The translations under genes and the position numbers were made by a program. A stretch of 64,000 nucleotides of DNA from Escherichia phage vB_EcoM_G17: the sequence record MK327931.1; one strand, 5' to 3'. Position 1 is the first letter of the stretch. Every line of letters starts with the position of its first letter. Under the pieces are notes generated by a model. It was given only the letters and a program-made list of their open reading frames with translations. It did no database searches and was not told the origin of the DNA. Below, in pieces: positions 8,876-45,856 of the stretch.

Positions 8876-9499
8876 TTAACCTTTTAATTTCTTGAAAAAA
8901 TCGTATATTTCAGAATCTAAATTATTTACTTTTTTAGATTCAGTGATTTTTTTAGAACTATTACAAGGTGATCCGTACTTACTCATCAGAGATTCAAATA
9001 CCGCTGTTGGGTATGCTTCTGGAGCACTAGGTTGAGCAACAATATCAATAGTGATAATTTCAAAATCAGAAACTATTCCATTATAATCAACGTTACCGGA
9101 ACCGCGAGAACTTACACCAAGTTTTACACCAGCCTCTAGCATTTTACGGATATTCTGACCATGTGCAGTATCAAGTAGTTTGATTTCTGCCATACCATTA
9201 GCACCTTCCATCCAAACCTTAGTAATCATTGCTGCTACACGGTCTAGGTTAATAGTTAGTGTTTCTGGATGGTCACATTCAACAAGAATGCTTTCACCTT
9301 TAGCTAAACGCTGGTTCATGTTATTTACTGCCCTTGTAATTTCAGATAAAGGGTAAATTCTCTCGTTCAAATTTCGTTGGTCGGCTTGAATAGCAATACC
9401 ACGAAGATAGCAGTCACGCCCACCAAATCCATTATCACGATGTTCCAAAACAACTTTAGAATCATTGAATGAAGACCATTCACGAATCATACTACTCAT
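8876..9499 (-). CDS. Prohead core protease (T4 gp21-like)
   Basis: 207-aa ORF; pattern RNLNERIYPLSEITRAVNN...ILVECDHPE...GVSSRGSG parallels gp21 (RNKRLYPKRIL...LNHP...GVSSRGLGS); position between core proteins and scaffold; AAGGAGA RBS. Confidence 0.8.
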   Translation of the reverse strand: MSSMIREWSSFNDSKVVLEHRDNGFGGRDCYLRGIAIQADQRNLNERIYPLSEITRAVNNMNQRLAKGESILVECDHPETLTINLDRVAAMITKVWMEGANGMAEIKLLDTAHGQNIRKMLEAGVKLGVSSRGSGNVDYNGIVSDFEIITIDIVAQPSAPEAYPTAVFESLMSKYGSPCNSSKKITESKKVNNLDSEIYDFFKKLKG

Positions 9500-15902: not shown

Positions 15903-16737
15903 TTTTCATATAGCCAGCACATTGTTGCTGGTTTTTTTGGTTTTAAACTACAGAATTATTTGAATTGAATTATGAAAGGATTAATTTTAATATTATTGGA
16001 TTCATCTAACTCATTTCATTCGTTAGCTGAAGAATATTCGTTACTACGTAACTCATATTCATTTAATTAAATTAATTATAAAGAACTTTAAAAGATTTAA
16101 TACTTGACGGGATTTGTTGAGGACATTTTCATCCCCCCGCAGGGGAATGAAGACAATAAAAAAGAGACAATGAAGTCTCTATTTCTTGACGCTGATGGTT
16201 TCAGCATTTATTGTATTGCGAATTTCTTAAAAATATATTAAGAACGAAAGCGGGTTGCTCTGTTTCTCTCTATCGCAGTCATGTGCAACGGTCGTCAGTC
16301 TTAATCATCCTGACACTCACCTGAAAGTCTATACAATCAAACTTCAGGCTGTTTATTAAAATCACTTAATAAACTCCCTTAGCAAATCTGGTAAGGTGCG
16401 ATCCTTATATGTCTATCGAGGAACTCTCTGTATGCTTATCGGAGTTCTTTATTGAGCCGCATTGCCGTGAGGGGTTCAAACTATGCCCACATCTAACGGG
16501 TTTCTTTTGCTCATCGCACTGTTGAACTGCTCATCTGCCATCTACATTTTCGATAGGATCAGGTTCTAATTTATATGCATTTCTGCATTCAACAGGATTG
16601 TCATTACTACAACAAACATTATAGCACAAACTTTAAAGTTGTCTCACTATTTTTATAAAAATATTCATTAAGTACTTAAAATATTGCAAATAACTAATCT
16701 ATAAATATTTTGATAACAAATAGTTTGGTGAGGAATT
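15903..16737. other. ORF-free ~0.83 kb intergenic region with multiple hairpins; candidate structured ncRNA, origin or regulatory region
   Basis: No ORF of 60 aa or more in any frame across 835 bp in an otherwise tightly packed genome; composition looks less AT-rich than flanks (by eye, not counted); hairpins at 16128-16151, 16163-16180, 16191-16205, 16320-16348; 12-nt palindrome aactttaaagtt near 16630. Confidence 0.4.
16700..16707 (+). promoter_or_regulatory. T4-type late promoter box TATAAATA upstream of endo VII-like gene
   Basis: Exact tataaata 16700-16707, ~30 nt upstream of ATG 16738. Confidence 0.55.
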
Positions 16738-27916: not shown

Positions 27917-28312
27917 ATGGCAGTTGTTTTTAAAGGTTTTTCTACCCCAGTAGTGGGTAGAACTGAAACATTGTATGATAGTGAATTGGTTCGCCAAGAT
28001 TTAATGAATCATTTCAATACAAAAAAAGGCGAAAGAGCATTTGATGCTGACTATGGTTTTATTGCATGGGATTTGCTGTTTGAATTGGAAGGTTATAATA
28101 CTATCAACCTTTTGGAAGCAGATGCCCGTAGAATAATTAGCTTAGATCCACGCTTAAATCTTAAGAAATTGCAAATTTCAAGAATAGAATATGGATACCA
28201 AATGAATATTGTATTACAGTACGTAGTATTGGATACATTAGAAGAACTTACTATTGTATTCGATGCAAGAAGTAATAACAGAATGGCAACATATTCAGTA
28301 TCGTCTTTATAA
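27917..28312 (+). CDS. Baseplate wedge protein gp25-like (GPW/gp25 family)
   Basis: 131-aa ORF; GERAFDADYGFIAWDLLFE parallels T4 gp25 GSRPFDPEFGCDLSDQLFE. Confidence 0.7.
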   Translation: MAVVFKGFSTPVVGRTETLYDSELVRQDLMNHFNTKKGERAFDADYGFIAWDLLFELEGYNTINLLEADARRIISLDPRLNLKKLQISRIEYGYQMNIVLQYVVLDTLEELTIVFDARSNNRMATYSVSSL

Positions 28313-28316
28313 TTAC

Positions 28317-28345
28317 AAAAGCACTCTTCGGAGTGCTTTTCTTTT
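28317..28345 (+). terminator. Rho-independent terminator after gp25-like gene
   Basis: Stem agcactc/gagtgct with UUCG tetraloop (28320-28337) followed by ttttcttttt. Confidence 0.65.
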
Positions 28346-28413
28346 TGAATAAATATTTCTATATATAATTCCCAGTACTGAACTAGTACTTTACTGATTT
28401 AAAGGAATAAATT

Positions 28414-31400
28414 ATGTCACAACAAAAAAGGCAATCAAATTTATACGCTGGTGAGGATTGGACTCAAGTATATGAAAGTTTTTATAAAATCAATCTTACA
28501 GCTTATGACTTCGATACTATCCGTCAGAGTATGATTGATTATCTACGTGCAACTTACCCAGACTCATTCAACGACTGGATCGAAAACGACCAGTTTATTT
28601 TTATTTTAGATACGATTTCTATGCTAGGGCAGAACTTGGCATTTCGTATGGATTTGAACACACGTGAAAACTTTTTAGATACTGCAACTCGTCGTGCATC
28701 AGTACTAAAACTAGCTAAAATGATTTCTTACTCACCACGCCGCTCATATCCAGGTCGTGCAGTTGCTAAATTAACCGAAATTAAAACAAACCAAGATGTT
28801 CGTAATAGTTTTAATGAATCATTAAAAGATAAAATCATTCGTTGGAATGACCCGATGGATGCTAACTGGTATGAAAACTTCATTCTAGTAATGAACAGTT
28901 CATTTGTCAGTACTAACCAATTTGGTAATCCAGTCAAGCGTATTGATGTTAATGGTGTCTCTCGTCAACTATATCGAATGAACACCATCCCAATGACAGC
29001 ACCCAGTATTCCATTTATTGCAACTGTCAATGGTGAATCTATGACATTTGAAGTAGTGAATCCTGATATTACGTCTGTTGGTGTTGAAGAACGACATCCA
29101 GAACCACAAGAGCAAAAATATATTGTTTATCAAAATGATGGTAATGGATTTAGTTCACCAAATACTGGTTTTTTTGTATATTTCGTACAAGGTACATTGA
29201 CATATCAAGATTATCAATATGCTATCCGTGAAGAGAACCGTATACAAGATATTAACGTTGATAATATCAACGAAACTGATGTATGGGTTCAAGAAATAAA
29301 TGAAGATGGTATTGTTCGTACCAAATGGACAAAAGTTCCATCAATGGAAAGTATTGCATATAACACTGTTAATCGTCAATTAAAAACAATTTTTGCTGTT
29401 ACTACTCGTGATAAAGATCAAATAACAATTAAGTATCCAGACTCAAGAAGTGGTGTTGTTCCCCGTGGGACGTTCCGCGTATGGTATCGTGTTAGTAATG
29501 GTAAAACATATAACATTAAAACTTCTGAAATTCAAAACAAAAGCGTAAAATATACATATCGTACAAAAACACAGTCAAGTTATGAATCTAGTACATTGGA
29601 TATACGTTTTTCATTACAATATGAGTCCGACCGTGCACAAAGTGCAGAGACTATTGAGCAGATTAAAGCACGTGCACCACAAATGTACTATACACAAAAC
29701 CGTTTTGTCAATGGTGAAGATTATAATATTGCACCACTTAGTTTAGGCAATACTGTACTTAAATCTAAAGCTATTAATAGAATTTATAGTGGACAATCAA
29801 GATTTATTGATATTAATGATCCTACTGGTAAGTATCAAAATACCGATGTTTTTAGTGATGATGGTGCATTATATCAAGAAAACACACAATTTAATAGATC
29901 ATTATTGCTACCAACTACAAAAACAAATGCTAGTATTGTTATTGACAATATTCAACCATTGATTGGTGAAAATGCGGTAATACAACGTTACCAAGCGTTT
30001 CCATCAAATACAATTGGTATTGAAATACAACAAGCATGGACTCCGGTATACAATTCAAATTATACAACTAACACATATGGTAGAATTTTGGGTTCATCTG
30101 GTACAGTTTATGGTTCATATCAGGTTGGTACTCTAATTAAATTTTCTAATTCTGGAACTACTATATGGGCTAGTGTAGTTAGTGTATTGGATAATGGATT
30201 TTATGTACTGAGTACATCGGTTCCAAGTGGAATGCAAGCCATAGAGTACATTTTACCATATAGAACTAGATTTAACTCGGTTGAAGTTCAAGCAATTTCT
30301 GCTATGCTAGATAAAAAAACTGATTTTGTTATTGTACATGACAAAGAAACGACATCATGGGTTCCTATTGAAGTAAGTACCAATGATGATACTATTGTAT
30401 ATAATGGTAATGAAGTTTTAATTATAATTAATGTAAAATATACAGCAGAAACTTGGGAATTTGATGCTAACGGTATTGAATATATTTTTGTGGGTGGAGA
30501 AAAAGTAAGATTTTACTTTGTATCATCTAAAAAAATTACTGATATTAGTACTGGTACAGTTCAAAGTGATAAGATTGAAATTTTATCATCTAACACTACT
30601 AGTAGTAGTAATTCAGGATTGACAAGTAATATAGATTTTCAAATTTATGACACAATTCAACAAGAGAATGGCTATCTAGATGGTTCTCGTGTTATTGTTA
30701 CATCTAGGAAAGTAGATAGTAATGGTATACCATTGGAACCAAACCAATTTAAAGAAATTGTTCCTACTTGGACTGGAACCGATGCATTAAAATATGGTGG
30801 TATTTTGGTATTTCAGGAAAATAGTGATTTCACTATATCAGTACTGTCGTTACCAAATGATACCTTCACACTTCTTGATTCATCGTGGTCTTATACAATG
30901 GAACAAGCCTTGGCAGAGCCGAATGCATATAAAAGAACTGAATTTGTTAGAAATAACGCAATTCGTTCAACCACATTGAGTGGATTATATAGTAAAGGTT
31001 CTGGATTTTTAGTTGGTTTTAACTATGATGGTAAATATTATTTTATTGAACAAACAGTTGGTAACAACAATGATCGTTTAGGACAGCTAATTAGTAATTT
31101 AACTTATTCCGATGATACTGGCACTGTTAGTCCTGAATTGGCTTTTTATCGTGCAATTAATAACATGGGAACTAATGCTGACGAGAATCAGAAGCTAGAT
31201 TATTATGGATACAAAGATGTTACTTCACAGTACACTGTTAAAACTAATGCACGTACTAGTATAGACTTCCATTGGAAACACTATGCACCTGACGACAATC
31301 GCATTGATCCTAGTAGAACAAACTTAATTGATATGTATGTATTAACCAATTCATATAAAACTGAAGTTGACGTTTGGTTGAAAAATAATGCTGTTGGTAG

Positions 31401-31924: not shown

Positions 31925-34900
31925 ATGAATGAACGAATTATATGGAGTCCAAAAATGACTAATAATTTTAAGTTTCAACCTACACAGATGGCTGAAGCAG
32001 TACAGAAGAAGCTTTTTATTAAAAGATTGCCTGAGTGGATGCAAGGCTTAGAAGATATTCAAAAAGTCAGTGATGATGTTATTCAACAATGGTTTAATCC
32101 GGCTGAAAACGAATTAGTTGACGGCTATATTGGTGATATGGGTTCTCCTGCCGCTGCTGGTAATATCTTCTTACATGAAAGTACTGTAGCACGTCAACTT
32201 TATCAGTTGTCCACTGCTTACGTCTCAAAAAATGATGATTCGACAATTCGTTCAATTCAATTTTATGATGATCTAGTTGGATACATGAATCATTATGGAG
32301 CACTAACCGATAATGAAAGCCGTTTGTTCAACGGTAAGTTTTATGCATGGACTCCAGCTATTAACCCAAATAAAATGAACAATTTTAGCTCATATCTTTG
32401 GGATACTAAAAACTCTTATAATATTACTTCACCTGATTACATTGTAATGGAACGTGGAGCACTTAATGGTAATACATGGTCACTACAAAACTTTTGGTAT
32501 ACTTTAGGTGAAACATTAGAAGATGGCTCAATATTAACTGAAGAATTAATGCAAGATTCACGTTTTATTCGTGCACGTGCACCAATTATTGAATATAATA
32601 AAAATATTGAGCTAATTAACTACGGTACAAAATTCCGTGGAACTGTTGATCTGTTCTCTGATATTATTAAACCTGAAGATATCGTTCAAAAAGATATTAA
32701 TAGTGGTATACGTATTGATGGTATTATTCCGCAAGATGGAATGCGTATTCTATTCACCAGTATTGGTAACAATGGTGAAAACAATAGAATTTATAATGTA
32801 TATGTGAAAAAAATGCAAGATGGTACTCGTGTTTATGGTTTAGCACTAGATCCAGAAGAAGAAACCGAATCACGCCCAAGTGGTGAACCTCAAGATGGTG
32901 ATGTTGTTCTAATCACTAAAGGTAATGAGTATGGTAATAGTTCTATGTACTGGAATGGATCTTTGTGGGTTCGTGCACAATCAAAAACTAGTGTTAACGT
33001 ATTCCCTAAATTCCAACTTTATGATCGTAATGGTATCAAACTTGACAACAGTACTACATATCCATCAAGTAACTTTAAAGGTTCAGAGTTGTTTGGTTTT
33101 AAAATAAATTACAACTATGCAACTGATAGTGTATATGGATATAACATTGAACTTGGTGATTATAATTATTACATTTATGAAAACTTTTTACAATCCCAAC
33201 GTTATACCTATGACCATCTTGGAAAAGAAGTTGAAATTGATGGTTTATACTATTATAACATTATTGATGAAAATAATGAAATGAATCTTCAAACCGATTG
33301 GGTTCGTTCAGAAGAGTACTCTAAACAATTTGTAAAACAAACTCCACAAGTCCAACGTACTGATATGTATCGTGTATTCAGTACTGTTTATGATATGGAA
33401 GTTTTTAAAGAACCAGTTGATGGTATGTATGCATATGTTATTGAAGTTGATAGAACATATCAGTACTATAAAGCTGACCGTGAAACTTATCTAGATTGGC
33501 ATCCAATTACTGGTGATGGTGTTCAGATTGTAAAATATGACCATACATTCGAATTGGCACAAAAAGTTTTAGATAATGATTCTGATATTATTGAAGTTGT
33601 GGTTGATGGTGTTGATGTGTCCAAATATACCAAAAATGTTTCAAAAGGTCAAGTACAAAGCATCACTCTAGATAGTACTGTAGAATTGGATGAAGATTCT
33701 GTTATTCAAATTAGAACTTATAGCAGTACTGTAACTCCTAATAAAGAATTAGGTGCATATGAAGTTCCAATCAACCTACAAAATAACCCATATAATTCTA
33801 ATATTATATACATTAACCAAGGTGACTACACTTTACATTTTCAGGATATTATTCAAAAGAACATTACACGTGGTTCTTCTGATGATTTCAATGACTATGA
33901 AGAACGTTTGGCTAAAGGATTGGTTAATAATGGCGTAGGTACTAAAATTATCCAAAATGAAGCATCTATGCTTCCATTGATGGCACATACTGCAAATGAA
34001 GATATTGATTTGTTTGAAGCAACTATGTTTATGCAATCTGAATATTTTAGATTCATTAATAAATTTAATACACAAATGCTTCGTATGTATGATGAAAATC
34101 CATCAGACTTTTTACAAAATAGTGCTGCAAACATTGTTGATGCAATTTTAACTACTATTAATATGGGACGTGATAGTTCATTCCCATTCTATTATGATAA
34201 TGTTGGAAGTACTTCTGGATTCATTCGTGCATTTATACCACCAACACCACAGTTCTTAGGTATTCTTCAAGCATATGTACCAGAAAAAGCGACATTCCTC
34301 ACTGCTGGTAGTAAACCAAGCTGTTATAACATCAGTCATACTGGTATTATTTCCAAAGCATACCGTGTTATCAATGGTGTTGATAAAATGGATGATGTTG
34401 TATATGAATTAGAAAATAGAATTTTTAATAGTATTGATAATAAATTCAAAGATGTTGATTACGTACCAGTATTGAATAGTGATGACCTTTTCCCTACACC
34501 ATATTTCACTAAAACTGAATATAGTGCTGAAGAGAAACAAACATTATTACTACGTGGATACATTAACTTCACCGCAACTAATGGTATCAGTAATAGTACA
34601 CATGATTATGATCCTAACAATTGGAGAACTTGGAACTATACTGGCACTTATTATGTAGTTAATGGTCAAAGTACTGAAATTCCTGCACGTGGTTCATGGC
34701 GTGCCATTTACACTGACCAATATGGTACATATCGCCCAGCTACCCATCCGTGGGAAATGTTTGGCTTTACACAACGTCCAACTTGGTGGAACCAAGAATA
34801 CGAACCAACGGCTGTTCAAGTTGGTGAACGTGATAGTGATGTTGTATATGTATATGAAGCACTTGTTATGAATGAGCAAGGTGATTTAGTTCCTAGTGGT

Positions 34901-37900
34901 CTTTGGGATATTGACGGAACTATTGGAGATAGCAGTACTGGAACTATTTTATTTGGTGATCGTCGTGGTCAATATGACAAATATAAAAGATTTGGTGTAC
35001 AGCCATTCAAAATTACAAAAACTGGAAATAAAACATCTTCTGGTATTGATATTTGTGTGGTTGAATATATTGCACCTGAAATTTTAGGTTTAGTGTCTGG
35101 ATCTTTAAATCATAGAGCAGAACCTTGGACATATGGTGATATGGGTGACATGGAATTTACATACATGAACACTACATTGTTTGCATATGACCAAATGATG
35201 CTTTTGTATAAAGCTAAACCAGCACAATTTGCTAACTATTTCTGGGATACCCGCAACGATAACTTAAAAGAAGTATTCACTGATGGTTCACAATTCCTTT
35301 ATGGTGATACACGTAAGCGTATTAATTTTGATAAAAATACAGTAGTTCATGGTGAAAATAGCACAAGAACAATTGGTTATCAAATGTTTGTAAGTGACCA
35401 TTTGATGTATCAAAATAAAAATATTACCACCAAGTATGGGGATGTAGTTCGTTCTTCTTATATAAATGTTGGTCATAAAATTGGAGGATTTACTAAAGCA
35501 GATCAGCTAACATTCAATGCTAAATCTTTCGGTCTTATTTCACAAGAAAACCAAACCATTGGTCTTGTTCGTTCTAATAATATCCGTGATGAGCAAATGA
35601 GTGCGATCAAAATTACTTGGAATGGTAGTGCATATCAGATTGATGGATATGATCTAGTTGGTGCTAAATTTAAATATAAACTTCCAGTAAAAAATGGTAG
35701 AAAAGTAACTCTTAAATTGGAAAACCGTAATGTTGTTCATTATAATGAATGGAAGTCTGAAGCTTCAATTGAATATGGTAAAGTTTTCAATAGTTACCAA
35801 GAAGTTTATACTTTTATTTGTGGATATGGTGAATATCTTAAAGAACATGGTTGGATTTTTGAAGATGTAAATGATAGTGGTGCTCAACAAGATTGGAACA
35901 CTATTGCTAAAGATTTCGTGATCTGGAGTCAGAATTCTCTAGTAACTGGTGAATTTATTTCTTGTACCCCAAGTGCTGCAAACGCTAAATTTGGGGCAGA
36001 CTTTGGTTCAGTACAATCTATTACGCAAAATAATGGTGGTGTATGGTCATTACTTGATGATAATAACCAAGGTATTCGCCAATATGAAATTGAAACTTCT
36101 CGTATTGGAAATATCTTCACTGTTAGAACTTTAGAATCTAATAAACGCATTGCATTGATTCGTTTAAGTTTGTGTTCATATGAACATGCTGTTATTTTTG
36201 ATGATAAAACTATTTTTGGTGATTACATTTATCAGCCAACATATGGTTCTATTCAAGAACTAATTAAAATGTATGGATATATTACTGGTTCATGGACTGG
36301 TCGCCTACAAGCTCCTGGATTTATTATCTTGGAAGCTGGAACACTACCATCATTTGAAAAATTAGTGTCGGATTTCCAACATTATTATGATAGTGAAACT
36401 CCAGTAAGTGATGTACAATTACAAGAGTTGTCAAACCATTTGATTGGTTATCAATCTCGTGATTATCTACAGCGTATGATTAGTAGTGATGTTAGTCGTG
36501 TTGATTTCTATAAAGGATTCATTCACGATAAAGGTACTAACCAAGTTTTAGAACGTGTACTTCGTGTTTCTAAATCATATGACACTGATGAATATAAAGC
36601 ATTACAAGAATGGGCATTTAAAATTGGTACATATGGTAATATTGATGGTAAGAAAAACCTTCAATTTAAACTAATCAATGACCAATTTAAACAACAACCT
36701 CAAATGGTTTCTTTTGATGTAAATGCAACTTCAAATGGTAATGGTAATCATATTGTATACTTCGGTGAGCAAGGTAAAGATCCTCGTTGGATTACACGTC
36801 CAAATGGTAAGTTCTCATTCCCAATGCGTAGTGGAAGAAGTGAAAACATCCAACTTCCAGATATTGGTCCAGTAACATTGGATGAAGTATCGTACACAAC
36901 AAAAGATTTCAGTACTGCATATAATGACCGCATAACTTATACTAATGGTAAAGGTGAAAATCCTGAATCTGTGTGGATGTTTAAAGACGGTAATGGTTTG
37001 TGGAACATTTTTGAATTGGTTGATACTAATGTACAAATGGTTTCTATAACACCTATTGAAAATACCGATGTGTATGCTGAACAATTTTGTAAAGTAACTT
37101 TAACTGATAATGTACCACTTGAAGATGGTGATTATTATTATTTTGTTGATGAAACTAACTTTATGCCAGATACTTTAACAGTAGAAAGTCAATATTATAC
37201 TGCTGGTTCTGATCCTAAAGTTATGGTAGTTCCATTTGACACTTCTATTGATATTGAATTTACTGATCCAGATACACGTCCACGTTTGTATCGTTATGTA
37301 TCACGTTTTGCCAGTACTGATGATCGTCAAGCTTACATTGACAAGAAATATAGTTTTAAAGCACCACAAAGTACTTTATTTGATCGTCCAACGACATATG
37401 ATGAACGTACTAACATTACTGAGCTATATCTAAACGTTTATGACCCAATTAATGGTGTTATTCCAGGTGCGGCTATGCAAAACGTAACATATACTTCACC
37501 AGTTGATCCTGCACAGTATAATAGTAATGGAGAGTTAATCCAGGCTTGGGGTGCTGATAAAGTTGGTCAAGTATGGTGGAACACTAGCACTGCATTTTAT
37601 TTGGATTATACTCGTGCAATTTATGACGCAGACGGTAATGTTGATATTGATGCAACCAATGAATACAAACGTTACAACTGGGGCCGTTTGTTACCACATA
37701 GTACCATTGATGTGTTAGAGTGGGTTTGTTCACCAGTTGAGCCATATAACTGGGACAAATACTGTAAAGATGTTGCTAAGAAAAACAAAAATAATACTAT
37801 GTATCTACCAAGTGGAACTGCACTTGAAGATAATTATAGTACATTTTTGGAATATGATAGTTCAACTGATAGTTATGTAACAAAATACTATTTCTGGGTA

Positions 37901-40900
37901 CGTGATACAATTTATGTACCACCACTACATACCAGAACGAAATCATGTACTGACATTGCTCGTATTATTAAAGATCCAACACAGCTAAACATTCCTTGGT
38001 TCGCTCCAATAAATGAAAACTCGTTTATTCTTAGTAATATGCAATTTAAAGTGAATGATGATACCAGTATTTTAACTGTTTCTTATTACATGGATAGTAC
38101 TGAAGTTGTTAAACATGACCAGTATCAACTATGTAAAGAAGGTGACAGCTATAACTTTAACCCACTAATTTGGGATTCAATGTGGAACTCACTAATTGGT
38201 CAAGAAACAACTGAATCAGGTTCTGTGATTAATTTATTATATCCAGATGTTGATAACGGTTTAGGATCAAACAAAACTTGGTTCCAAAATGTTATAGAAG
38301 CTCGTAGAAACTTTGTAGAAAGTGCTAATAATTATTATAGGTCACAAAACATAACCACTAATAGTGTTGTTATGGAAGATGTGTTTAATGTTAAAACCAC
38401 TGAAGTTAACCCTAATGAAGTTTCTTTCCGTGTGTTGTCTTACAATAATGAATTAGTTATTGCAGTTGAAAGTGATAAATTTAAAGAAAATGACGCTGTT
38501 ATTTTAAGTACTAGTGGATATCTACCAAATCCATTAACTTCTAGTGCTGTTTATTTTATTCACTTCGACGAAAATGGATATATTCAGTTAATGAATAGTC
38601 CAGCAAACGCGGGTAGTGTTGTTACTATAACGTTAGAAAACAAAGGTGAGGGACAACATAAAATGATTAAACAATCTGATTATGTTGAATCACTAGGAAC
38701 CTCATTAGACATGACTCAGTACTGGTCATATGCTGATTGGTATGATGTTGGATATGATAGTAACACGACTTATACTCAAGAGTCAAGCTTAGAAGATGCT
38801 AATACTAAAAACTACCAAGTTGGCGATATTATCAGAGTTACCGATAGTGAAAACATTTGGACATTGTATATTAAATCACAATCACGCGATTCAATTTATT
38901 GGAAAGCGATTGGTCGTGAAAACAGTACAGTTGAACTCAATGATATGCTTTACGCAGATTATAGTGTTCATAATGATAATGGTTCACTAAGCAATCGTGA
39001 AATCAACGTTCGTAAAGCACTAGCTTTACTCAAAAATTCTTTCGATTTACATCAAAGCGAAATTGTTTTTGATATGGTCAAATATGTACATGTTGAACAA
39101 AGTGTTGTGGATTGGGTATTTAAAACATCATATATCTATATTGTTGGTTTGGAACAATCATTAGTTCAAAACTATTCAAACGATAATTTGATTAATCAAA
39201 TTGTTGAATATTTTGAAGAAGTTAAACCTTATAGAACTAAAATTCGTTCACAAATAGAGCAAAAGACATCTGATGATGATTTAATAAAAGGTCTATGTAA
39301 TGATTTAGATCCTAATGGATATATTTTCGTTGATGGTTCTTGGATCAAAACTGAAAAAGATATTTGGGATTATGAGTACGCTCAATTTAATGAAATTACC
39401 CAAAAATGGGAACAGGTAGGTTCACTACCAAGTGATTTCGTTACACCAAATAGAAGATTCCAAGAAATTGATATTATTATGCATTATGATAATATTCAGT
39501 GTAAACCAAATGAAGATTTGGCAAGCATAAATGAATTAGTAAGTGTTAATAACAAATATCAATCCAATGAAAAGGATGCTGTTAGTAACTATGAATTACA
39601 ACGTTATATATATTCTTTCCCAGAATATAGTGAAGAAACTTTCGATCTTCTTATTGCTTATCAAATGCAAATCTACTATCCAGAATTGGATGTAACACTA
39701 GGAACAGCATATGGCGTTAACCAGTGGTATAAAGACCATGCGGAAGATTTAGAAGCAACTGATGAATTCACTGCTACATTGGAACGTGTTTATAAAGAAT
39801 CAACGCATAACGATATGTTTACTGACCTTAGACAATATGTTCAGTATAACACATTGGCAAACCGTTTGAAACTTTATAAAGATATAAGTGATGAGAAAAT
39901 TCACGATGAAGTTGGATGTGGATTTAGTGGACTTACTTATAATGACAATCCTAGTACTAGACTTCCATTAGGCTTTTCTTCTAGTAATGATTATAACTAT
40001 GGATATTTTGAAATAAGCAGTGAATTGTATCAAAAATACATTTCATTAATTAAAGATAAAAATCCTGACGCATCAGACTATGAAGTAAAAGTTAAACTTG
40101 AAGTTGAGTATGGTGTATATGTTTATCGTTATGATGAAGTAGGTGGTGATACCCGTTTCTATACTGATGCTATTCACGTATTAGCAGGTATGAGAGGGTT
40201 ATTCGACAAAGACGCTACTGATAAGTACGAAAAAGCTGAAGAGATTCTTAGTAAGACCCCAATTGATATCTATGCAATTACAATGATTCCACGAAAATAT
40301 GTTTACTTAAATGTTAACGGTGTATATCAAAGTATACCTGATGAACAAAGTATTGATGATTTCATGGAAGATTATTTTATCACAAATGGTGAAATGGTTG
40401 AACTAGCTGAAATAAATCTTGATGATTTACCACTAGATCAAAATAATCCAATGTATTCTGATTATCAATATATACTTGATAGTATTACTGAAGCTAAGTA
40501 CTTCAATGATATGAATGCATTTGATAACCTAGCATTGGAATCTCAAACTTCTTCAATAAAATGGGAAGTTAAAGATGATGAAGTTGATCCTTATATTGTG
40601 GATATATCTGACATAAACCCTTCTGGGCGTGATGTAGGTCAAATTAGATTTACAGTTGATGGATATGGGTTTGACAATGTATCTCTTGTACAATTACGTG
40701 ATAACAGCAGATATCAAACTGAAGGTATGGCAATTATCAATCCATATAAACATACAGAAGCAATTGTAAGTATTCCTTCATATGCTAAGATTGAAAATGA
40801 TATTAATAAAACAACATCGAAGTTTGATGAAAAATATTTCTATCGTGTGAGATCTATTAATAGCTTAACTGAAGCAGAAATAGTTGACAATGACCTATCT

Positions 40901-41926
40901 GATGGTGATAAGGTGATGATTTTCACTCCTGATGGTGAAGATTTTGTGAGATATCAAAATCACACATGGGAAACAATCTTGCGTGTATCTAACATCAAAA
41001 ACAATACAACTCCGATCCTATTCACTGTAAGAAATACAGGTAAGGAAACGATTGAATTGATTGATGAGAGTACTGGTGCAGTTCTCCGTTATGATAACAT
41101 CACTCTTGCACAACAAAATGAGCCAGTACAGCCTCTAGCATTGAACATTGTTCGTGTTAGAACATTTGCTGACCCTGAATTTGTCAAGAATGGTATTAAA
41201 TTGTATGAACAAAATAGAAATTACACCATTGATGTAATTAATTATGATGTTTTCTACGATACTACTTTAAATGGTGGTAAGTACAATGACGGAATAACAC
41301 CAGATGACGTTGACGTTTGGATAATCTCTAATGAAATATTTGATGTTGATGGAATTACTATCGATAACGGTTATAACTTACCAATTACGGGTGCGGGAGT
41401 TCTTAGTGAATTGGCAAGAACTAAAATGACTGATAGTTTAGAAATCAACGTTATCGAATATGATTCAAGTGTTATTCAACCGTTTAGAAATAATGAAGGG
41501 ATATGGGTTTATGGATTCCCAATGGTTGACGGTATGTATATCGGTGTTGTTGGTGGTACTGTTACTAACATCACAACCATTAGTGAAGAAAATACAACCT
41601 ATGTTTCTCAACCTAAATCAATAAGTCCTTATAGTATTAGAAATAATGTTTTATCCGGTTCAGCCGCAAACATGAATGATATTATATCGATTGGATATGA
41701 AAAAGTTGAAGTTAGAAATGCAAATAATTTACTCCGTGGTGTAATGTATAGTGCAGAACATGATTTTAAACTTAATACTACATATTCTTTCAATGGAATT
41801 AATTTAGGTAATTATGATATGTTAAAACGTTACACACAAAATAGTTACACTATAGATCTTTCAGTATACACTGATAGTCTACAAGTTAGTGGTAATGATA
41901 TTAAAAATATATTATTAGTTAAGTAA
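31925..41926 (+). CDS. Giant virion structural protein (3333 aa by ORF track; gp7 position, baseplate wedge or fiber-like)
   Basis: Uninterrupted 10-kb ORF directly downstream of the gp6-like gene. Alternative start ATG 31955 has a GGAG RBS; a near-consensus CATAAATA late box lies at 31911-31918. Asn/Tyr/Thr/Asp-rich, no recognisable catalytic motifs. Confidence 0.7.
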   Translation: MNERIIWSPKMTNNFKFQPTQMAEAVQKKLFIKRLPEWMQGLEDIQKVSDDVIQQWFNPAENELVDGYIGDMGSPAAAGNIFLHESTVARQLYQLSTAYVSKNDDSTIRSIQFYDDLVGYMNHYGALTDNESRLFNGKFYAWTPAINPNKMNNFSSYLWDTKNSYNITSPDYIVMERGALNGNTWSLQNFWYTLGETLEDGSILTEELMQDSRFIRARAPIIEYNKNIELINYGTKFRGTVDLFSDIIKPEDIVQKDINSGIRIDGIIPQDGMRILFTSIGNNGENNRIYNVYVKKMQDGTRVYGLALDPEEETESRPSGEPQDGDVVLITKGNEYGNSSMYWNGSLWVRAQSKTSVNVFPKFQLYDRNGIKLDNSTTYPSSNFKGSELFGFKINYNYATDSVYGYNIELGDYNYYIYENFLQSQRYTYDHLGKEVEIDGLYYYNIIDENNEMNLQTDWVRSEEYSKQFVKQTPQVQRTDMYRVFSTVYDMEVFKEPVDGMYAYVIEVDRTYQYYKADRETYLDWHPITGDGVQIVKYDHTFELAQKVLDNDSDIIEVVVDGVDVSKYTKNVSKGQVQSITLDSTVELDEDSVIQIRTYSSTVTPNKELGAYEVPINLQNNPYNSNIIYINQGDYTLHFQDIIQKNITRGSSDDFNDYEERLAKGLVNNGVGTKIIQNEASMLPLMAHTANEDIDLFEATMFMQSEYFRFINKFNTQMLRMYDENPSDFLQNSAANIVDAILTTINMGRDSSFPFYYDNVGSTSGFIRAFIPPTPQFLGILQAYVPEKATFLTAGSKPSCYNISHTGIISKAYRVINGVDKMDDVVYELENRIFNSIDNKFKDVDYVPVLNSDDLFPTPYFTKTEYSAEEKQTLLLRGYINFTATNGISNSTHDYDPNNWRTWNYTGTYYVVNGQSTEIPARGSWRAIYTDQYGTYRPATHPWEMFGFTQRPTWWNQEYEPTAVQVGERDSDVVYVYEALVMNEQGDLVPSGLWDIDGTIGDSSTGTILFGDRRGQYDKYKRFGVQPFKITKTGNKTSSGIDICVVEYIAPEILGLVSGSLNHRAEPWTYGDMGDMEFTYMNTTLFAYDQMMLLYKAKPAQFANYFWDTRNDNLKEVFTDGSQFLYGDTRKRINFDKNTVVHGENSTRTIGYQMFVSDHLMYQNKNITTKYGDVVRSSYINVGHKIGGFTKADQLTFNAKSFGLISQENQTIGLVRSNNIRDEQMSAIKITWNGSAYQIDGYDLVGAKFKYKLPVKNGRKVTLKLENRNVVHYNEWKSEASIEYGKVFNSYQEVYTFICGYGEYLKEHGWIFEDVNDSGAQQDWNTIAKDFVIWSQNSLVTGEFISCTPSAANAKFGADFGSVQSITQNNGGVWSLLDDNNQGIRQYEIETSRIGNIFTVRTLESNKRIALIRLSLCSYEHAVIFDDKTIFGDYIYQPTYGSIQELIKMYGYITGSWTGRLQAPGFIILEAGTLPSFEKLVSDFQHYYDSETPVSDVQLQELSNHLIGYQSRDYLQRMISSDVSRVDFYKGFIHDKGTNQVLERVLRVSKSYDTDEYKALQEWAFKIGTYGNIDGKKNLQFKLINDQFKQQPQMVSFDVNATSNGNGNHIVYFGEQGKDPRWITRPNGKFSFPMRSGRSENIQLPDIGPVTLDEVSYTTKDFSTAYNDRITYTNGKGENPESVWMFKDGNGLWNIFELVDTNVQMVSITPIENTDVYAEQFCKVTLTDNVPLEDGDYYYFVDETNFMPDTLTVESQYYTAGSDPKVMVVPFDTSIDIEFTDPDTRPRLYRYVSRFASTDDRQAYIDKKYSFKAPQSTLFDRPTTYDERTNITELYLNVYDPINGVIPGAAMQNVTYTSPVDPAQYNSNGELIQAWGADKVGQVWWNTSTAFYLDYTRAIYDADGNVDIDATNEYKRYNWGRLLPHSTIDVLEWVCSPVEPYNWDKYCKDVAKKNKNNTMYLPSGTALEDNYSTFLEYDSSTDSYVTKYYFWVRDTIYVPPLHTRTKSCTDIARIIKDPTQLNIPWFAPINENSFILSNMQFKVNDDTSILTVSYYMDSTEVVKHDQYQLCKEGDSYNFNPLIWDSMWNSLIGQETTESGSVINLLYPDVDNGLGSNKTWFQNVIEARRNFVESANNYYRSQNITTNSVVMEDVFNVKTTEVNPNEVSFRVLSYNNELVIAVESDKFKENDAVILSTSGYLPNPLTSSAVYFIHFDENGYIQLMNSPANAGSVVTITLENKGEGQHKMIKQSDYVESLGTSLDMTQYWSYADWYDVGYDSNTTYTQESSLEDANTKNYQVGDIIRVTDSENIWTLYIKSQSRDSIYWKAIGRENSTVELNDMLYADYSVHNDNGSLSNREINVRKALALLKNSFDLHQSEIVFDMVKYVHVEQSVVDWVFKTSYIYIVGLEQSLVQNYSNDNLINQIVEYFEEVKPYRTKIRSQIEQKTSDDDLIKGLCNDLDPNGYIFVDGSWIKTEKDIWDYEYAQFNEITQKWEQVGSLPSDFVTPNRRFQEIDIIMHYDNIQCKPNEDLASINELVSVNNKYQSNEKDAVSNYELQRYIYSFPEYSEETFDLLIAYQMQIYYPELDVTLGTAYGVNQWYKDHAEDLEATDEFTATLERVYKESTHNDMFTDLRQYVQYNTLANRLKLYKDISDEKIHDEVGCGFSGLTYNDNPSTRLPLGFSSSNDYNYGYFEISSELYQKYISLIKDKNPDASDYEVKVKLEVEYGVYVYRYDEVGGDTRFYTDAIHVLAGMRGLFDKDATDKYEKAEEILSKTPIDIYAITMIPRKYVYLNVNGVYQSIPDEQSIDDFMEDYFITNGEMVELAEINLDDLPLDQNNPMYSDYQYILDSITEAKYFNDMNAFDNLALESQTSSIKWEVKDDEVDPYIVDISDINPSGRDVGQIRFTVDGYGFDNVSLVQLRDNSRYQTEGMAIINPYKHTEAIVSIPSYAKIENDINKTTSKFDEKYFYRVRSINSLTEAEIVDNDLSDGDKVMIFTPDGEDFVRYQNHTWETILRVSNIKNNTTPILFTVRNTGKETIELIDESTGAVLRYDNITLAQQNEPVQPLALNIVRVRTFADPEFVKNGIKLYEQNRNYTIDVINYDVFYDTTLNGGKYNDGITPDDVDVWIISNEIFDVDGITIDNGYNLPITGAGVLSELARTKMTDSLEINVIEYDSSVIQPFRNNEGIWVYGFPMVDGMYIGVVGGTVTNITTISEENTTYVSQPKSISPYSIRNNVLSGSAANMNDIISIGYEKVEVRNANNLLRGVMYSAEHDFKLNTTYSFNGINLGNYDMLKRYTQNSYTIDLSVYTDSLQVSGNDIKNILLVK

Positions 41927-41928
41927 TA

Positions 41929-41966
41929 AAAAAAGGAGAGCATTATGCTCTCCTTTTCTTTTTTTA
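41929..41966. terminator. Bidirectional rho-independent terminator between convergent giant ORF and ClpA-like gene
   Basis: A-run, 8-bp stem ggagagca/tgctctcc (41935-41953), then T-run; works on both strands. Confidence 0.65.
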
Positions 41967-44252
41967 TACTAGTGCTTTATCTACAGCTTTGGTACGTTTC
42001 GGCTTAATATCGATTTTACCATCAATAACATCAAATGTAATGTTACCACCATTCACAAGTGAACCACACAACATTTCTTTAGCTAGTGGTACACGAATGT
42101 TTTGTTCAATGGTACGTTTCATTGGACGTGCACCCATACCAACTTTTACCCCATTTTTCGCAAGCCATTCACGTGCAGCTTTTGTCAATGTAACTTTAAC
42201 ATTACGGTCTTTGACTTGTTCATTCAAACCACCCATGAACTTATCAATGATGCTGTCAATAGCTTCACTGCTTAGGTCTTTAAACGTAACGATACTATCA
42301 ATACGGTTAATAAACTCTGGTGGCAAGAATGCTTTAATTGCCTTGTCCTGTGCAGTGTCACTACCGCTCATACCAATGCTACGCTTTGTTGAATCAGCCG
42401 CACCAAGGTTTGTAGTCATAATAACAGTTACGTTATTAAAATATACAGTTTTACCTTGAGAACCAGTCAGACGACCTTCATCCAAAACCTGTAGGAAGGT
42501 TAGTAGTACTTTACGATCTGCTTTTTCAATTTCATCAAGTAACAGTACTGCATTAGGGAACTGCTCAATTTTATCCAACAGTAAACCGTTACCAGAATCA
42601 TGACCAACATAACCTGGAGGTGAACCAATTAGTTTAGAAACAGTATGTTCTTGAGAAAATTCTGACATATCAAAGCGAATGAGTTCCGCACCAGTTGCGT
42701 CTGCTAATGCTTTGGTAATTTCTGTTTTACCAGTACCAGATGGTCCAACAAACATAAATGCACCCTGAACACTAGATTTGTCACGCAGTCCTGCACGAGC
42801 TACCATCACGTTATCAACTAATTTTTGAATAGCTTCCTCTTGACCGTATACACGTGAGCGTAGTGCATCTGGTAGATTACGCATACGATCACTTTCAGTA
42901 CATGCAACCACGTTGATATCCAAATTGGCAATACCAGCAACAACTTCTTGAATCAAATTGGCAGTAATAAGCTTACTATTGTTGTCACGTGAACGAACTT
43001 TAGCCGCAGCAGCATCCATTAGATCAATTGCTTTATCTGGGAAGTGCTTATTCTTCAGGAATTTATCACTGAGAGAAATTACAGCATCCATTGCATCAGA
43101 TGTGAACTCAACATTATGGAATTTTTCATACGTTGGTTTCAAACCATTAACAATTGCACGAGTTTCATCAATTGTCGGCTCAACTACGTCAATTTTCATA
43201 AAACGACGAGTTAATGCACTATCTTTCTCGATATTTTTACGATATTCATCATATGTTGTTGCACCAATTACACGAATCTCACCACGTGAAAGTGCTGGCT
43301 TAAGCATATTGCTCATGTCCATAGAACCATTACTTGCGGAACCAGCCCCAACCATAATATGAATTTCATCAATGAAAACAATAGTATTTTCACGTTTCTT
43401 TAGTTCTTTTAGCAAATTGTCGATGCGTTCTTCAAATTCACCACGATACTTAGTACCAGCAGTCAATGCACCAACATTTAGTGAAAGAATTTCAACGTCT
43501 TTTAGGTGTTCAGGTACGTTACCATCAGCAATAGCTTGTGCAAGCCCGTCGATGATTTGTGTTTTACCTACACCAGCTTCACCAGTGAGAATAGCATTCT
43601 TTTTGGTTTTGCGAGCAAGAGTCTCAATCAATGCAGACAATTCTTTCTGGCGACCAATCATAGGATCTAGTTTGCCTTCTTTTGCAAGAGCAGTTAGATT
43701 CGTTGTATAGTCTTCCAAACCTTTTTGTTTAGATGATTGCTGCTGTTGGGCCACTTTTTTATCTCCAATCGGTTCGTCATTAATACTTTGTAAGTTGATA
43801 CCCTTATCAAGTGACTCAACGTGTTTCTGTAATGCACGTGCAGCTTCAGTACAGCTAACACCTTCTTCTTTTAACGCAGCTTCTAGTGCTGTGTTAGGGA
43901 AAGACAGACATTCGAATAGAACAAAATATGCATCAATCGAAAAATCATCACTTTTTAGTTGTTCAATAACTGATTTTTTAGAAAGCTCATGTACAACGCG
44001 ATTCACTAGAAGTGAAGTGCGATTCGCGTCTTCATCTTTAACACTTTTTGGTGCATGTGGAACTGTTGTATTTTTAAGATAGTTCATTAGGCGGTTGTGC
44101 AGTTTGTCTGCATCAATGTTCATATCTTCAAATACGTTCTTGATGCTATCAATAGTCAGTACTGTGGCACTTACGTGGTCAATAGTCAAGAATGTATGAC
44201 CTAGAGATGTTGCCAGTTCGTCGCTTTTTTTGAACAATTGAGTAAGATTCAT
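41964..44252 (-). CDS. clpA: ClpA-like AAA+ unfoldase (two AAA+ modules, N-domain present)
   Basis: ORF track 41964..44273 (GTG); probable ATG 44250-44252 with AGGAGA RBS. Extended collinear similarity to ClpA across both nucleotide-binding domains: [22 protein letters not shown], Walker [17 protein letters not shown], second Walker [19 protein letters not shown], and SIGM at the ClpP-docking IGL/IGF loop position. No ClpB-type middle coiled-coil. Confidence 0.85.
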
Positions 44253-44362
44253 GTATTCTCCTATGTGATTCACGTCACTCTAATTAATAAACATTATATC
44301 ACATTCTTACGGTTTGTCTACAAGGTAAATAAAGATATACCCGATTTATTTTGGAGACAATC

Positions 44363-45856
44363 ATGACATATAGAATGTGGAAAAAAGGTAGAACCAATGA
44401 TTACAAGTTCATTGATTCTGCCATTGCTGAACAATACAACATTGGTGGAGTTGACATGTGGCTTTATGCATATGTCGGTCCAAAACAAGTTGCTGACAAC
44501 ACTGACTTATCCTATGGAGGTGATTATACATCTTCAGGATCAGTTGTGTCAAGTATTGGCGATTTAATTTTTGGTGACACACCAAACAGAAACTACAACC
44601 TTGAAGCTATCACACTTAGTTGTGTCTATCAAGTTCAAGAAGCAACTCCAGACTTGAAAATCCCAGGATTGTTCTTTAATTTCAACACTATGGACATCAC
44701 AATCCATTATAATACAATGATGCAGCGTTTAGGTAGAAAAATCATGCCAGGGGATGTGATAGAACTACCAAATTTACGTGATTTTGATGTATTTGGTAAA
44801 GATACAGGTCTAAACCGCTTCTATGTCGTCCAAGATGCATTTCGTACATCTGAGGGATACTCGGTTACGTGGCAACATCACATTTATAAACTTAGAGTTA
44901 AACCGCTAACCGACTCACCTGAGTACTCCGATTTACTCGGTAACAATAATTATCCTGATAATCCAGATGACCCTAATAATGGTAATGGAAATACCGATGA
45001 TGGTTCGTCGGAAAACAGTAACTATGGCAATGAAATGGATATCATGAACCGTATCATCATGCAAGCTGATGATGAAGTACCCTATATTCATTATACAAAC
45101 GAACATTTGTATGATGATCGACCTGATACAGTAGATTTATCAAAATATATGCTTAACGGTTATGATTTTCCAGAAGAACCTGCCGATGGAATGTATTTTT
45201 TGAAAAAAACATACCCAGTACTCAAAGAGTTTGTTAATGATACATGGATTTCTGTGGAAGTCAAGCGTGGAACCATCTTTCCCAGAAAACCAATGGATGG
45301 TGACTTCTTCTTTAAAGAAAATGACGCAGATGTGACAGGTTATACGTTGTATCAATATGATAAAAGTGCTAAAAAATGGTTAAATTGTGATGTAGAATAT
45401 ACTACCAGTGATGTTCCACCAGAAGATGTGGAAGATTTTTGTATTTTTTATAAAGAACCACACATTTATCAGTATAATGATGACAAGTGGGGGGAACCAA
45501 AGGTAACTTATGTCAATGAACCATTCACGTCCAATTGTGTATATGGTAATATTGATTCGCAACAAGATTATCGTCCTAAAATTCCACCAGCACGAGGTAC
45601 AGTCCCTGAAGGAAATATGTTCCCAACTGATGCAGTAGATGGTGACTATTTCTATCGCACCGATTATACTCCAGTTACGTTATGGGAATTCAATGCAACT
45701 AAGAATTCATGGGTTATTTTTGATTATGGTGGAAGAAAACCGTGGGAAGGTGCAGACTTAGCACTTACACAGTTTGTAAATAGTGATAACAAAGTTCCAT
45801 TACATGACGCAGTTAAACCTAATACTGTTTATCGCATACATAAGGACACAGAATGA
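44363..45856 (+). CDS. Neck protein (gp13/gp14-like, tentative)
   Basis: ORF track 44351..45856 (TTG); ATG 44363 has a GGAG RBS. Assignment from position directly upstream of the gp15-like gene; Asn/Asp/Gly-rich low-complexity insert in the middle. Confidence 0.45.
   Translation: MTYRMWKKGRTNDYKFIDSAIAEQYNIGGVDMWLYAYVGPKQVADNTDLSYGGDYTSSGSVVSSIGDLIFGDTPNRNYNLEAITLSCVYQVQEATPDLKIPGLFFNFNTMDITIHYNTMMQRLGRKIMPGDVIELPNLRDFDVFGKDTGLNRFYVVQDAFRTSEGYSVTWQHHIYKLRVKPLTDSPEYSDLLGNNNYPDNPDDPNNGNGNTDDGSSENSNYGNEMDIMNRIIMQADDEVPYIHYTNEHLYDDRPDTVDLSKYMLNGYDFPEEPADGMYFLKKTYPVLKEFVNDTWISVEVKRGTIFPRKPMDGDFFFKENDADVTGYTLYQYDKSAKKWLNCDVEYTTSDVPPEDVEDFCIFYKEPHIYQYNDDKWGEPKVTYVNEPFTSNCVYGNIDSQQDYRPKIPPARGTVPEGNMFPTDAVDGDYFYRTDYTPVTLWEFNATKNSWVIFDYGGRKPWEGADLALTQFVNSDNKVPLHDAVKPNTVYRIHKDTE

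Follow-up and report, generated by a model that had tools for sequence, protein, structure and literature searches.

The 64,000-nucleotide stretch of Escherichia phage vB_EcoM_G17 DNA analysed here (record MK327931.1; in the following, the window) carries on its minus strand a gene for a ClpA-like AAA+ unfoldase of 762 residues, convergent with the plus-strand gene of a 3,333-residue virion protein (see Table 1). By megablast the window is 100% identical to positions 175631-239630 of the record of Escherichia phage Sharanji (OR545507.1; 350,079 bp), which belongs to the genus Asteriusvirus, in the 121Q/PBECO4 group of Rak2-like jumbo myoviruses. An earlier note, made from the sequence of the window, had seen no clpP gene there; in the rest of the genome, a ClpP (gp496) and a protein of ClpS fold (gp293) were found to be encoded by the same phage. 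What is new here is the frame, a candidate three-gene phage-encoded Clp system in place of a lone unfoldase, together with the differences that separate the phage docking interface and adaptor pocket from those of the host.

The ClpA-like gene, its product and its transcription signals

The open reading frame (ORF) that the earlier note had reported is present, and its likely start is the ATG at 44252, the upstream GTG being probably not used; this ATG yields the 762-residue product on which all public annotations agree, and it is preceded by the ribosome-binding site already remarked on in the note, whose AGGAG is invariant in UE-S1, ph0011 and Ecwhy_1. The convergence with the giant ORF is equally real: the two genes are separated by a 37-bp gap occupied by a hairpin, annotated as a terminator in UE-S1, whose loop varies between four Asteriusvirus genomes and RaK2 but whose stem (GGAGAGC/GCTCTCC) is the same in all five, as fits a bidirectional terminator. 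The same convergent arrangement, with a giant ORF of about 3,330 residues, is present in RaK2 and XbC2; no Pfam domain was found in the 3,333-residue virion protein at E<=0.001. The G+C content of the ClpA-like gene (38.4%) and that of its third codon positions (25.4%) lie within about 1-1.5 standard deviations of the values for 20 long ORFs of the window (35.4 ± 3.1% and 20.8 ± 3.0%), so that, as the note had claimed, its composition matches the rest of the phage without a break.

The assignment of the product to the full-length ClpA class, proposed in the earlier note, is borne out by the profile search, in which the best NCBIfam model is that of ClpA (TIGR02639; 754.7 bits, E 9.5e-227), matched in a single stretch over residues 3-740, with no other AAA+ family ahead of it; Pfam finds the domains AAA (in D1), AAA_lid_9, AAA_2 (in D2) and ClpB_D2-small, and phrog_4871 is matched over its full length (1036 bits). 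Among solved structures the best match by sequence is E. coli ClpA (1ksf, 2.3e-180), and the alignment between the two proteins, of 762 and 758 residues, is collinear and in one piece (17-741 versus 20-734); both consist of an N-domain followed by D1 and D2, with no M-domain, and the phage protein has every ATPase and pore motif as well as a tripeptide at the position of the ClpP-docking loop. The near-bacterial level of similarity that the note had perceived was overstated for the N-domain, which shares only 21% identity with that of E. coli ClpA, compared with 51% for D1, 47% for D2 and 43% for the whole protein; the scores remain below the NCBI equivalog cut-offs (TIGR02639, 754.7 versus 993.15 bits; NF008263, 655.1 versus 1350), so that, judged by these profiles, the phage protein represents a divergent ClpA-class lineage and is not an NCBI-defined equivalog. 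ClpB/Hsp104 and ClpC are, like the phage protein, class-I double-ring Hsp100 proteins, whose D1 and D2 are about 42-44% identical to it in structural matches; their sequence matches, however, score lower and fall into two stretches, because the phage protein is devoid of the M-domain coiled coil, and ClpB, unlike the phage protein, has no ClpP-docking-type loop. Membership of the ClpB, ClpC or ClpV class was ruled out by the missing M-domain and by the split, lower-scoring matches.

The N-terminal domain is the most divergent part of the protein: Pfam Clp_N recognizes one repeat (24.5 bits, above the 20.7 cut-off), the AlphaFold model places eight helices within residues 3-148, and identity within the phage clade is 43-73%, compared with 21% to E. 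coli. D1 carries a Walker A motif GEAGVGKT (43560-43583), a pore loop KYR and a Walker B motif FIDEIH; D2 carries a Walker A motif GPSGTGKT (42723-42746), a pore loop GYVG, a Walker B motif and a sensor-2 motif GARPM. The pore loops are intact in the alignment, and across 114 homologues of the phage clade the Walker A/B, pore-loop, arginine-finger-region and sensor-2 motifs are near-invariant (GARPM in all 114, D2 Walker A/B in 112). The AlphaFold model, whose predicted local distance difference test score (pLDDT) is 76, has an N-domain of eight helices, followed by a disordered linker and the two AAA+ modules, and its confidence falls precisely at the pore loops and the IGM loop (residues 624-630); compared with E. 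coli ClpA chains taken from ClpAP complexes, it gives a template-modelling (TM) score of 0.89. Between Asteriusvirus species, protein identity exceeds DNA identity (95.7% versus 88.7%, and 92.8% versus 82.7%), which together with the invariance of the motifs indicates that the gene is under purifying selection for an active ATPase. As far as sequence and model can tell, the product is a full-length, catalytically complete ClpA-class double-ring AAA+ protein, with its motifs intact, without an M-domain and with a hydrophobic-Gly-hydrophobic loop exposed where ClpP would dock. Among the anti-phage defence families of PADLOC, D2 shows generic AAA+ similarity only (PDC-M37B, DolB), and the phage ClpP and ClpS-like protein have no match.

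A further 19 genomes are at least 99% identical over the ClpA-like locus, which is thus found in 20 independent phage genomes from several continents; in most of them the gene is named clpA, "ClpA-like protein" or "ATP-dependent protease". Phages in whose records it is called clpA or ClpA-like include Sharanji, 121Q, SP27 and phAPEC6. ClpA has been described as conserved in most Rak2-like phages (Attai et al. 2018), and ClpA, ClpP and ClpS have been listed among jumbo-phage genes (Iyer et al. 2021, PMC7824862); the gene was therefore already known at the level of annotation. The ClpA-like genes of the Rak2-like phages (121Q gp581, RaK2 ORF069, those of GAP32, CBB and fHe-Yen9-04; phrog_4871) belong to the same family (60-99.9% identity), have the same convergent neighbour and are accompanied by the same ClpP and ClpS-like genes, with no substantive difference from the system described here. 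Members of the family, many of them encoded on contigs of about 350 kb, form an unbroken series of identities between 93% and 53%, and the next relatives stand at 45%; by this criterion the family is a discrete phage lineage, and the gene itself, syntenic in RaK2 and XbC2, is to be regarded on the genomic evidence as a resident phage gene, as the earlier note had supposed.

The gene is directly preceded by a promoter of the sigma-70 type whose -10 element is extended. This promoter is conserved in UE-S1, ph0011 and Ecwhy_1, where its -35 element is a perfect TTGACA; TGATATAAT also occurs upstream of the RaK2 ClpA-like gene, and, although Asteriusvirus species differ by 11-17% in their DNA over the locus, hardly any change is found among them in the divergent intergenic region of 110 bp. 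Promoters of the same type precede the other two Clp genes, namely TGGACA-16-TG-TATAAT directly upstream of the ClpP gene and a perfect TTGACA-17-TATAAT at infC, the gene preceding that of the ClpS-like protein. Strong sites (at least 11 of 12 matches) number 111 over the whole genome, compared with 17-28 in shuffled sequences (an enrichment of about 4-5-fold), and 100 of them are on the minus strand; only five fall in the 64-kb structural window, two of these upstream of the ClpA-like gene, and the virion genes flanking it have no near-consensus sigma-70-type promoter. Mass spectrometry of phAPEC6 virions (62 proteins) detected the products of both flanking genes, gp245 (17 peptides) and gp248, while the list contains neither gp246c, the ClpA-like protein, nor any other Clp entry; a role of the ClpA-like protein as a virion component was ruled out by its absence from this proteome. 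The related phage PA5oct relies for its transcription on the RNA polymerase of its host (PMC7318152); the main text of that paper gives no gene-level timing for the Clp genes. We infer that the ClpA-like protein is a non-virion enzyme transcribed by host RNA polymerase, apart from the structural genes on either side: the earlier note was right in placing the gene inside a structural-gene block, but its strand is the opposite one, and it has a sigma-70-type promoter and a terminator of its own.

A second promoter-like element, a perfect TTGACA-18-TATAAT at 44523-44552 (minus strand), lies antisense within the 5' part of a plus-strand structural gene (start around 44363), and a weak terminator-like hairpin follows about 100 nt downstream (44390-44419, minus strand); the pair could, from its sequence, specify a short antisense RNA or a second promoter of the ClpA-like gene. 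Its TTGACA is invariant in four Asteriusvirus genomes, for which coding constraint on the other strand could also account. The Sharanji genome encodes, in addition, an RpoD-like sigma factor of its own (gp182).

Table 1. Features of the ClpA-like locus and of the associated genes (window coordinates, except where the Sharanji record is indicated; aa, amino acids)
Feature	Position	Strand	Remarks
ORF from stop codon to upstream GTG	41964..44273	minus	769 codons counted from the upstream GTG
ClpA-like AAA+ unfoldase, coding sequence	41964..44252	minus	762 aa + stop; Sharanji clpA, 121Q gp581, phAPEC6 gp246c
Ribosome-binding site AGGAG	44258..44262	minus	5 nt upstream of ATG 44252; read from sequence
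Sigma-70-type promoter, extended -10	44293..44320	minus	TAGACA-16 nt-(TG)-TATAAT, 11/12 matches; promoter scan; directly upstream of the ClpA-like gene
N-terminal domain, aa 1-148	43809..44252	minus	Divergent, eight-helix, Clp_N-type; Pfam Clp_N and AlphaFold model
D1 AAA+ module, about aa 186-445	42918..43697	minus	Pfam AAA, AAA_lid_9; 51% identical to E. coli D1
D2 AAA+ module, about aa 446-740	42033..42917	minus	Pfam AAA_2, ClpB_D2-small
I626-G627-M628, counterpart of the E. coli ClpA IGL ClpP-docking tripeptide	42369..42377	minus	Aligns to E. coli SIGL
Bidirectional intrinsic terminator hairpin	41931..41957	.	Terminator scan; perfect 12-bp stem between A-run and T-run
Gene of 3,333-aa virion protein (context)	31925..41926	plus	ORF; convergent with the ClpA-like gene; phAPEC6 gp245, 382 kDa
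T4 gp21-type prohead protease, Peptidase_S77 (context)	8876..9499	minus	Pfam PF03420, 74.6 bits; annotated prohead core protein protease gp358
ClpP gp496	Sharanji record 304750-305445	minus	Outside the window; Pfam and NCBIfam profiles
ClpS-like adaptor gp293, 181 aa	Sharanji record 135529-136074	minus	Outside the window; annotated Clp adaptor

The ClpP and the ClpS-like protein of the same phage

The phage ClpP, gp496, is recognized by the Pfam CLP_protease profile (141 bits) and by the NCBIfam ClpP model (155 bits, below its cut-off of 249); it is 35% identical to E. coli ClpP. As in the E. coli enzyme, the Ser-His-Asp triad and the oxyanion residues are intact (equivalents of S97, H122, D171, G68 and M98), as they are in all of the six phages compared, in which the N-terminal axial loop (equivalents of P4-E8 and E14-R15) is conserved as well. 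The ClpPs of the Rak2 clade share, in addition, a C-terminal tail of about 22 residues (G.RN..G.Y.VKRRGG...WV), absent from the ClpPs of E. coli and PA5oct, which begins directly after the C-terminal strand lining the docking pocket. In some RefSeq records gp496 is labelled "head maturation protease", which is the name of the broad family phrog_94 that it matches; a head-maturation protease was ruled out both by the scores (51 bits for the head-maturation model versus 155 for ClpP) and by the presence of a separate S77 prohead protease, owing to which the phage ClpP is not needed for this task.

At the interface between unfoldase and peptidase, both phage proteins depart from their E. coli counterparts and differ also from one sub-clade to another. 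The phage SIGM aligns exactly with E. coli SIGL, as the earlier note had it, within a flexible loop of low pLDDT (residues 624-630); the Met at the third position of the tripeptide is outside the classical F/L of the [LIV]-G-[FL] type. The tripeptide is IGM in Sharanji, IGV in RaK2, LGM in fHe-Yen9-04, VGM in pEa_SNUABM_50, MGM in XbC2 and IGF in PA5oct, and among the 114 homologues it is far more variable than the catalytic motifs (IGM, MGM, IGV, LGM, IGA, LGL, VGF and others). In E. coli, residues I617-G618-L619-I620 of ClpA bind a pocket formed by A52, L48, F49 and F82 of one ClpP protomer and by L23, Y60, Y62, I90, M92, F112, L114 and L189 of the adjacent one (bioRxiv 10.1101/820209). Only two of these 12 pocket residues are identical in Sharanji ClpP (Y62, M92), six being changed conservatively and four non-conservatively (A52S, Y60T, F82S, L114G); the pocket also differs from one phage genus to another, residue 60 being T, V or S and residue 82 S, Y or N. 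The hosts of these phages are Enterobacterales, whose ClpPs are highly conserved. That the loop should vary between phages whose hosts are related, and the phage pocket with it, is better explained if the ClpA-like protein pairs with the ClpP of the phage; drawn from six paired sequences, the covariation is suggestive rather than statistical.

The third protein, gp293, is by itself a marginal ClpS match (Pfam ClpS, 24.7 bits against a cut-off of 23; phmmer versus PDB, E 0.17), and a plain tblastn search with a fragment of E. coli ClpS gave no match, the family profile and the structure model being needed for its detection. A profile built from 14 members of the gp293 family matches E. coli ClpS at 3.6e-8, and its top ten matches are all ClpS proteins; the core of the gp293 model (pLDDT about 90) superimposes on ClpS, the first 36 PDB matches all being ClpS, with TM scores of 0.88-0.92 and root-mean-square deviations of 1.1-1.2 Å. 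N34, D35, T38, M40 and H66 are the residues of E. coli ClpS to which roles in the N-degron pocket are ascribed; in the gp293 family D35 and T38 are kept, whereas N34D, D36P, M40A (the gatekeeper) and H66N are nearly invariant changes. The Met gatekeeper of ClpS is a specificity determinant, replaced by Arg in Arabidopsis ClpS1 (PMC7966870), and M53A mutant structures of Caulobacter ClpS are among the fold matches of the gp293 model. The altered pocket positions may, then, change specificity, and gp293, in spite of its ClpS fold, need not read classical N-degrons. Compared with E. coli ClpS (106 residues), the phage protein has extra conserved regions of about 63 residues at the N-terminus and about 40 at the C-terminus, both modelled at low confidence; parts of the ClpS core seem less well conserved than the N-terminal region, with its invariant SVYY.AG..IT.Y, and than the C-terminal helix (LE.LIR.D.P.D). 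The start codon of gp293 is located 13 nt downstream of the end of the IF-3 (infC) homologue.

The distribution of the three proteins was surveyed in 50,697 phage records: 70 contain the ClpA-like protein and 69 the ClpP, each at 60% identity or more, and 71 contain the ClpS-like protein, all three in phages of the same genera (Escherichia, Klebsiella, Salmonella, Erwinia, Yersinia, Pectobacterium, Xanthomonas, Serratia and Cronobacter). In the five cases where both sequences were fetched (RaK2, fHe-Yen9-04, pEa_SNUABM_50, XbC2 and PA5oct), ClpA and ClpP were both recovered. Other jumbo phages also encode ClpA and ClpP, namely PA5oct and Atu_ph07, the latter with ClpS, ClpX and ClpB besides; unlike in Sharanji, their ClpA gene adjoins a DnaJ gene. 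The ClpA of PA5oct is 42% identical to that of Sharanji and carries IGF, its ClpP shares 50% identity with that of E. coli but 33% with that of Sharanji, and no ClpS-like homologue from PA5oct-type (Pseudomonas) phages was found by tblastn.

Possible functions of the ClpA-like protein

The reading that we favour, with rather more confidence than doubt, is that the ClpA-like protein serves as the unfoldase of a Clp protease which the phage itself encodes and which comprises ClpA, ClpP and a ClpS-fold adaptor. As deduced from the sequences, a hexamer of the ClpA-like protein would dock through its IGM loops on a tetradecamer of the phage ClpP and feed it with unfolded substrates, and the ClpS-like protein, bound to the divergent N-domain, would select or redirect these substrates; the machine, expressed from sigma-70-type promoters by host RNA polymerase, would act inside the cell and not in the virion, breaking down particular proteins of host or phage in the course of infection. 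Several observations weigh against this reading. What links the three proteins is their co-occurrence and the comparison of interface residues, and the literature search found no experimental study of a phage-encoded ClpP, ClpA or ClpS; their genes, unlike those of a single operon, are scattered over the genome (at about 135, 218 and 305 kb), the clpP and ClpS-like genes lying about 85 kb on either side of the ClpA-like gene, a difference from the E. coli ClpAPS system as well. The promoter calls are consensus matches only. The tripeptide is degenerate in some members of the clade (IGA, IGG, MSM, MNM), in whose lineages docking on ClpP could be weak or lost, and docking is not to be assumed in Sharanji either, since aromatic side chains important in the E. 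coli pocket are missing from the altered pocket of the phage ClpP. Finally, ClpP was detected by mass spectrometry in virions of CBB (one peptide) and bears an "ESI-MS/MS" flag in PA5oct, which hints at a virion-related role of ClpP in some relatives.

A bolder form of the same proposal, possible though doubtful, is that the Rak2-like jumbo phages possess a complete and private ClpA-ClpP-ClpS machine, insulated from the ClpAPS system of the host: loop and pocket would have diverged together, so that the phage ClpA pairs only with the phage ClpP, and the adaptor, with its changed N-degron pocket (gatekeeper Met to Ala, His66 to Asn) and its additional conserved domains, would read other substrates. 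Transcribed from host-type promoters, apart from the virion genes, such a machine would let the phage choose for itself which proteins of the host or of its own are degraded, defence or regulatory factors being examples. If a dedicated protease is indeed present, it offers a tractable case of a virus equipped with its own regulated proteolysis machine, and its substrates could show what a 350-kb phage has to clear away, among the proteins of its host or its own, in order to develop; an orthogonal ClpAP pair would serve, moreover, as a tool for targeted degradation in E. coli.

The earlier note had considered two functions, a ClpP-independent chaperone and the recruitment of host ClpP, because no clpP had been seen in the window, where a local tblastn search indeed finds none; with gp496 in the genome, a partnership of the unfoldase with this phage ClpP has become more probable than either. 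The one that survives best, although we consider it unlikely, is a ClpP-independent chaperone or unfoldase that would fold, assemble or remodel the adjoining giant virion proteins. E. coli ClpA itself acts on RepA as a ClpP-independent chaperone. The convergence with the giant gene is kept in RaK2 and XbC2, the docking tripeptide is degenerate in some members of the clade, and the ClpA gene of PA5oct and Atu_ph07 adjoins that of DnaJ; in addition, ClpA and ClpX have been suggested as possible translocases or virion assembly factors of jumbo phages (Iyer et al. 2021, PMC7824862). Synteny, however, is conserved over the whole module, so that adjacency weighs little, and the ClpA-like gene, unlike the structural genes, is on the other strand, with a host-type promoter and a terminator of its own; furthermore, the protein was not found in phAPEC6 virions, the docking-type loop is kept here, and ClpP and the ClpS-like adaptor occur across the same clade.

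Next comes a hybrid protease, in which the ClpA-like protein would dock on host ClpP and present it with substrates chosen by the phage, a possibility that we hold to be improbable. Host ClpP is abundant at infection, a hydrophobic-Gly-hydrophobic tripeptide stands exactly at the position of IGL, and the D2 module bearing the loop is 47% identical to that of E. coli ClpA. The phage has, however, its own ClpP, found across the same clade, and the tripeptide varies (IGM, IGV, LGM, VGM) among phages of related hosts, even though the pockets of enterobacterial ClpPs are conserved; in the account of a 2019 study given in PMC7112951, changes of the ClpX tripeptide as small as I268L or F270L severely weaken its binding to ClpP.

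That the protein is a decoy or competitor, titrating host ClpP, ClpS or ClpA substrates and so shutting down host ClpAP proteolysis, is very improbable: phages do inhibit host proteases, as T4 PinA does with Lon, and the N-domain is only 21% identical to that of the host, but the near-invariance of the Walker, pore-loop, arginine-finger-region and sensor-2 motifs in the 114 homologues is unexpected for a passive decoy, and between Asteriusvirus species protein identity exceeds DNA identity. The probability that the contig is a chimera in which the gene comes from the host or another bacterium, or that the gene was captured recently and has no adapted role, is negligible, in spite of a GC content slightly above that of the flanks (38-39% versus about 32%), given its composition within the range of the window genes, the locus shared almost unchanged by 20 phage genomes, the continuous and discrete phage family to which it belongs and its low overall identity (43%) to E. 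coli ClpA; contamination and chimerism were ruled out on these grounds.

Further observations on the genome

Scans of the 64-kb window for Rfam families and transfer RNAs gave no matches, and this includes a stretch of about 835 bp (window 15903-16737), between gp364 and gp365, for which the Sharanji record annotates no gene. Between the gp25-like and gp6-like baseplate genes, 121Q carries gp584, a gene for an HNH endonuclease that bears the remark "protein associated with group I intron", in the place of which Sharanji has about 100 bp (window 28312-28414), a presence/absence polymorphism of a homing-type endonuclease. Sharanji encodes two GroES-like co-chaperonins, gp283 (record 125018-125344) and gp344 (record 172768-173067), and in PA5oct, as in Atu_ph07, the gene directly upstream of that of ClpA is a DnaJ gene (PA5oct gp187); the GroES-like and DnaJ genes suggest a broader phage-encoded set of protein-quality-control functions.

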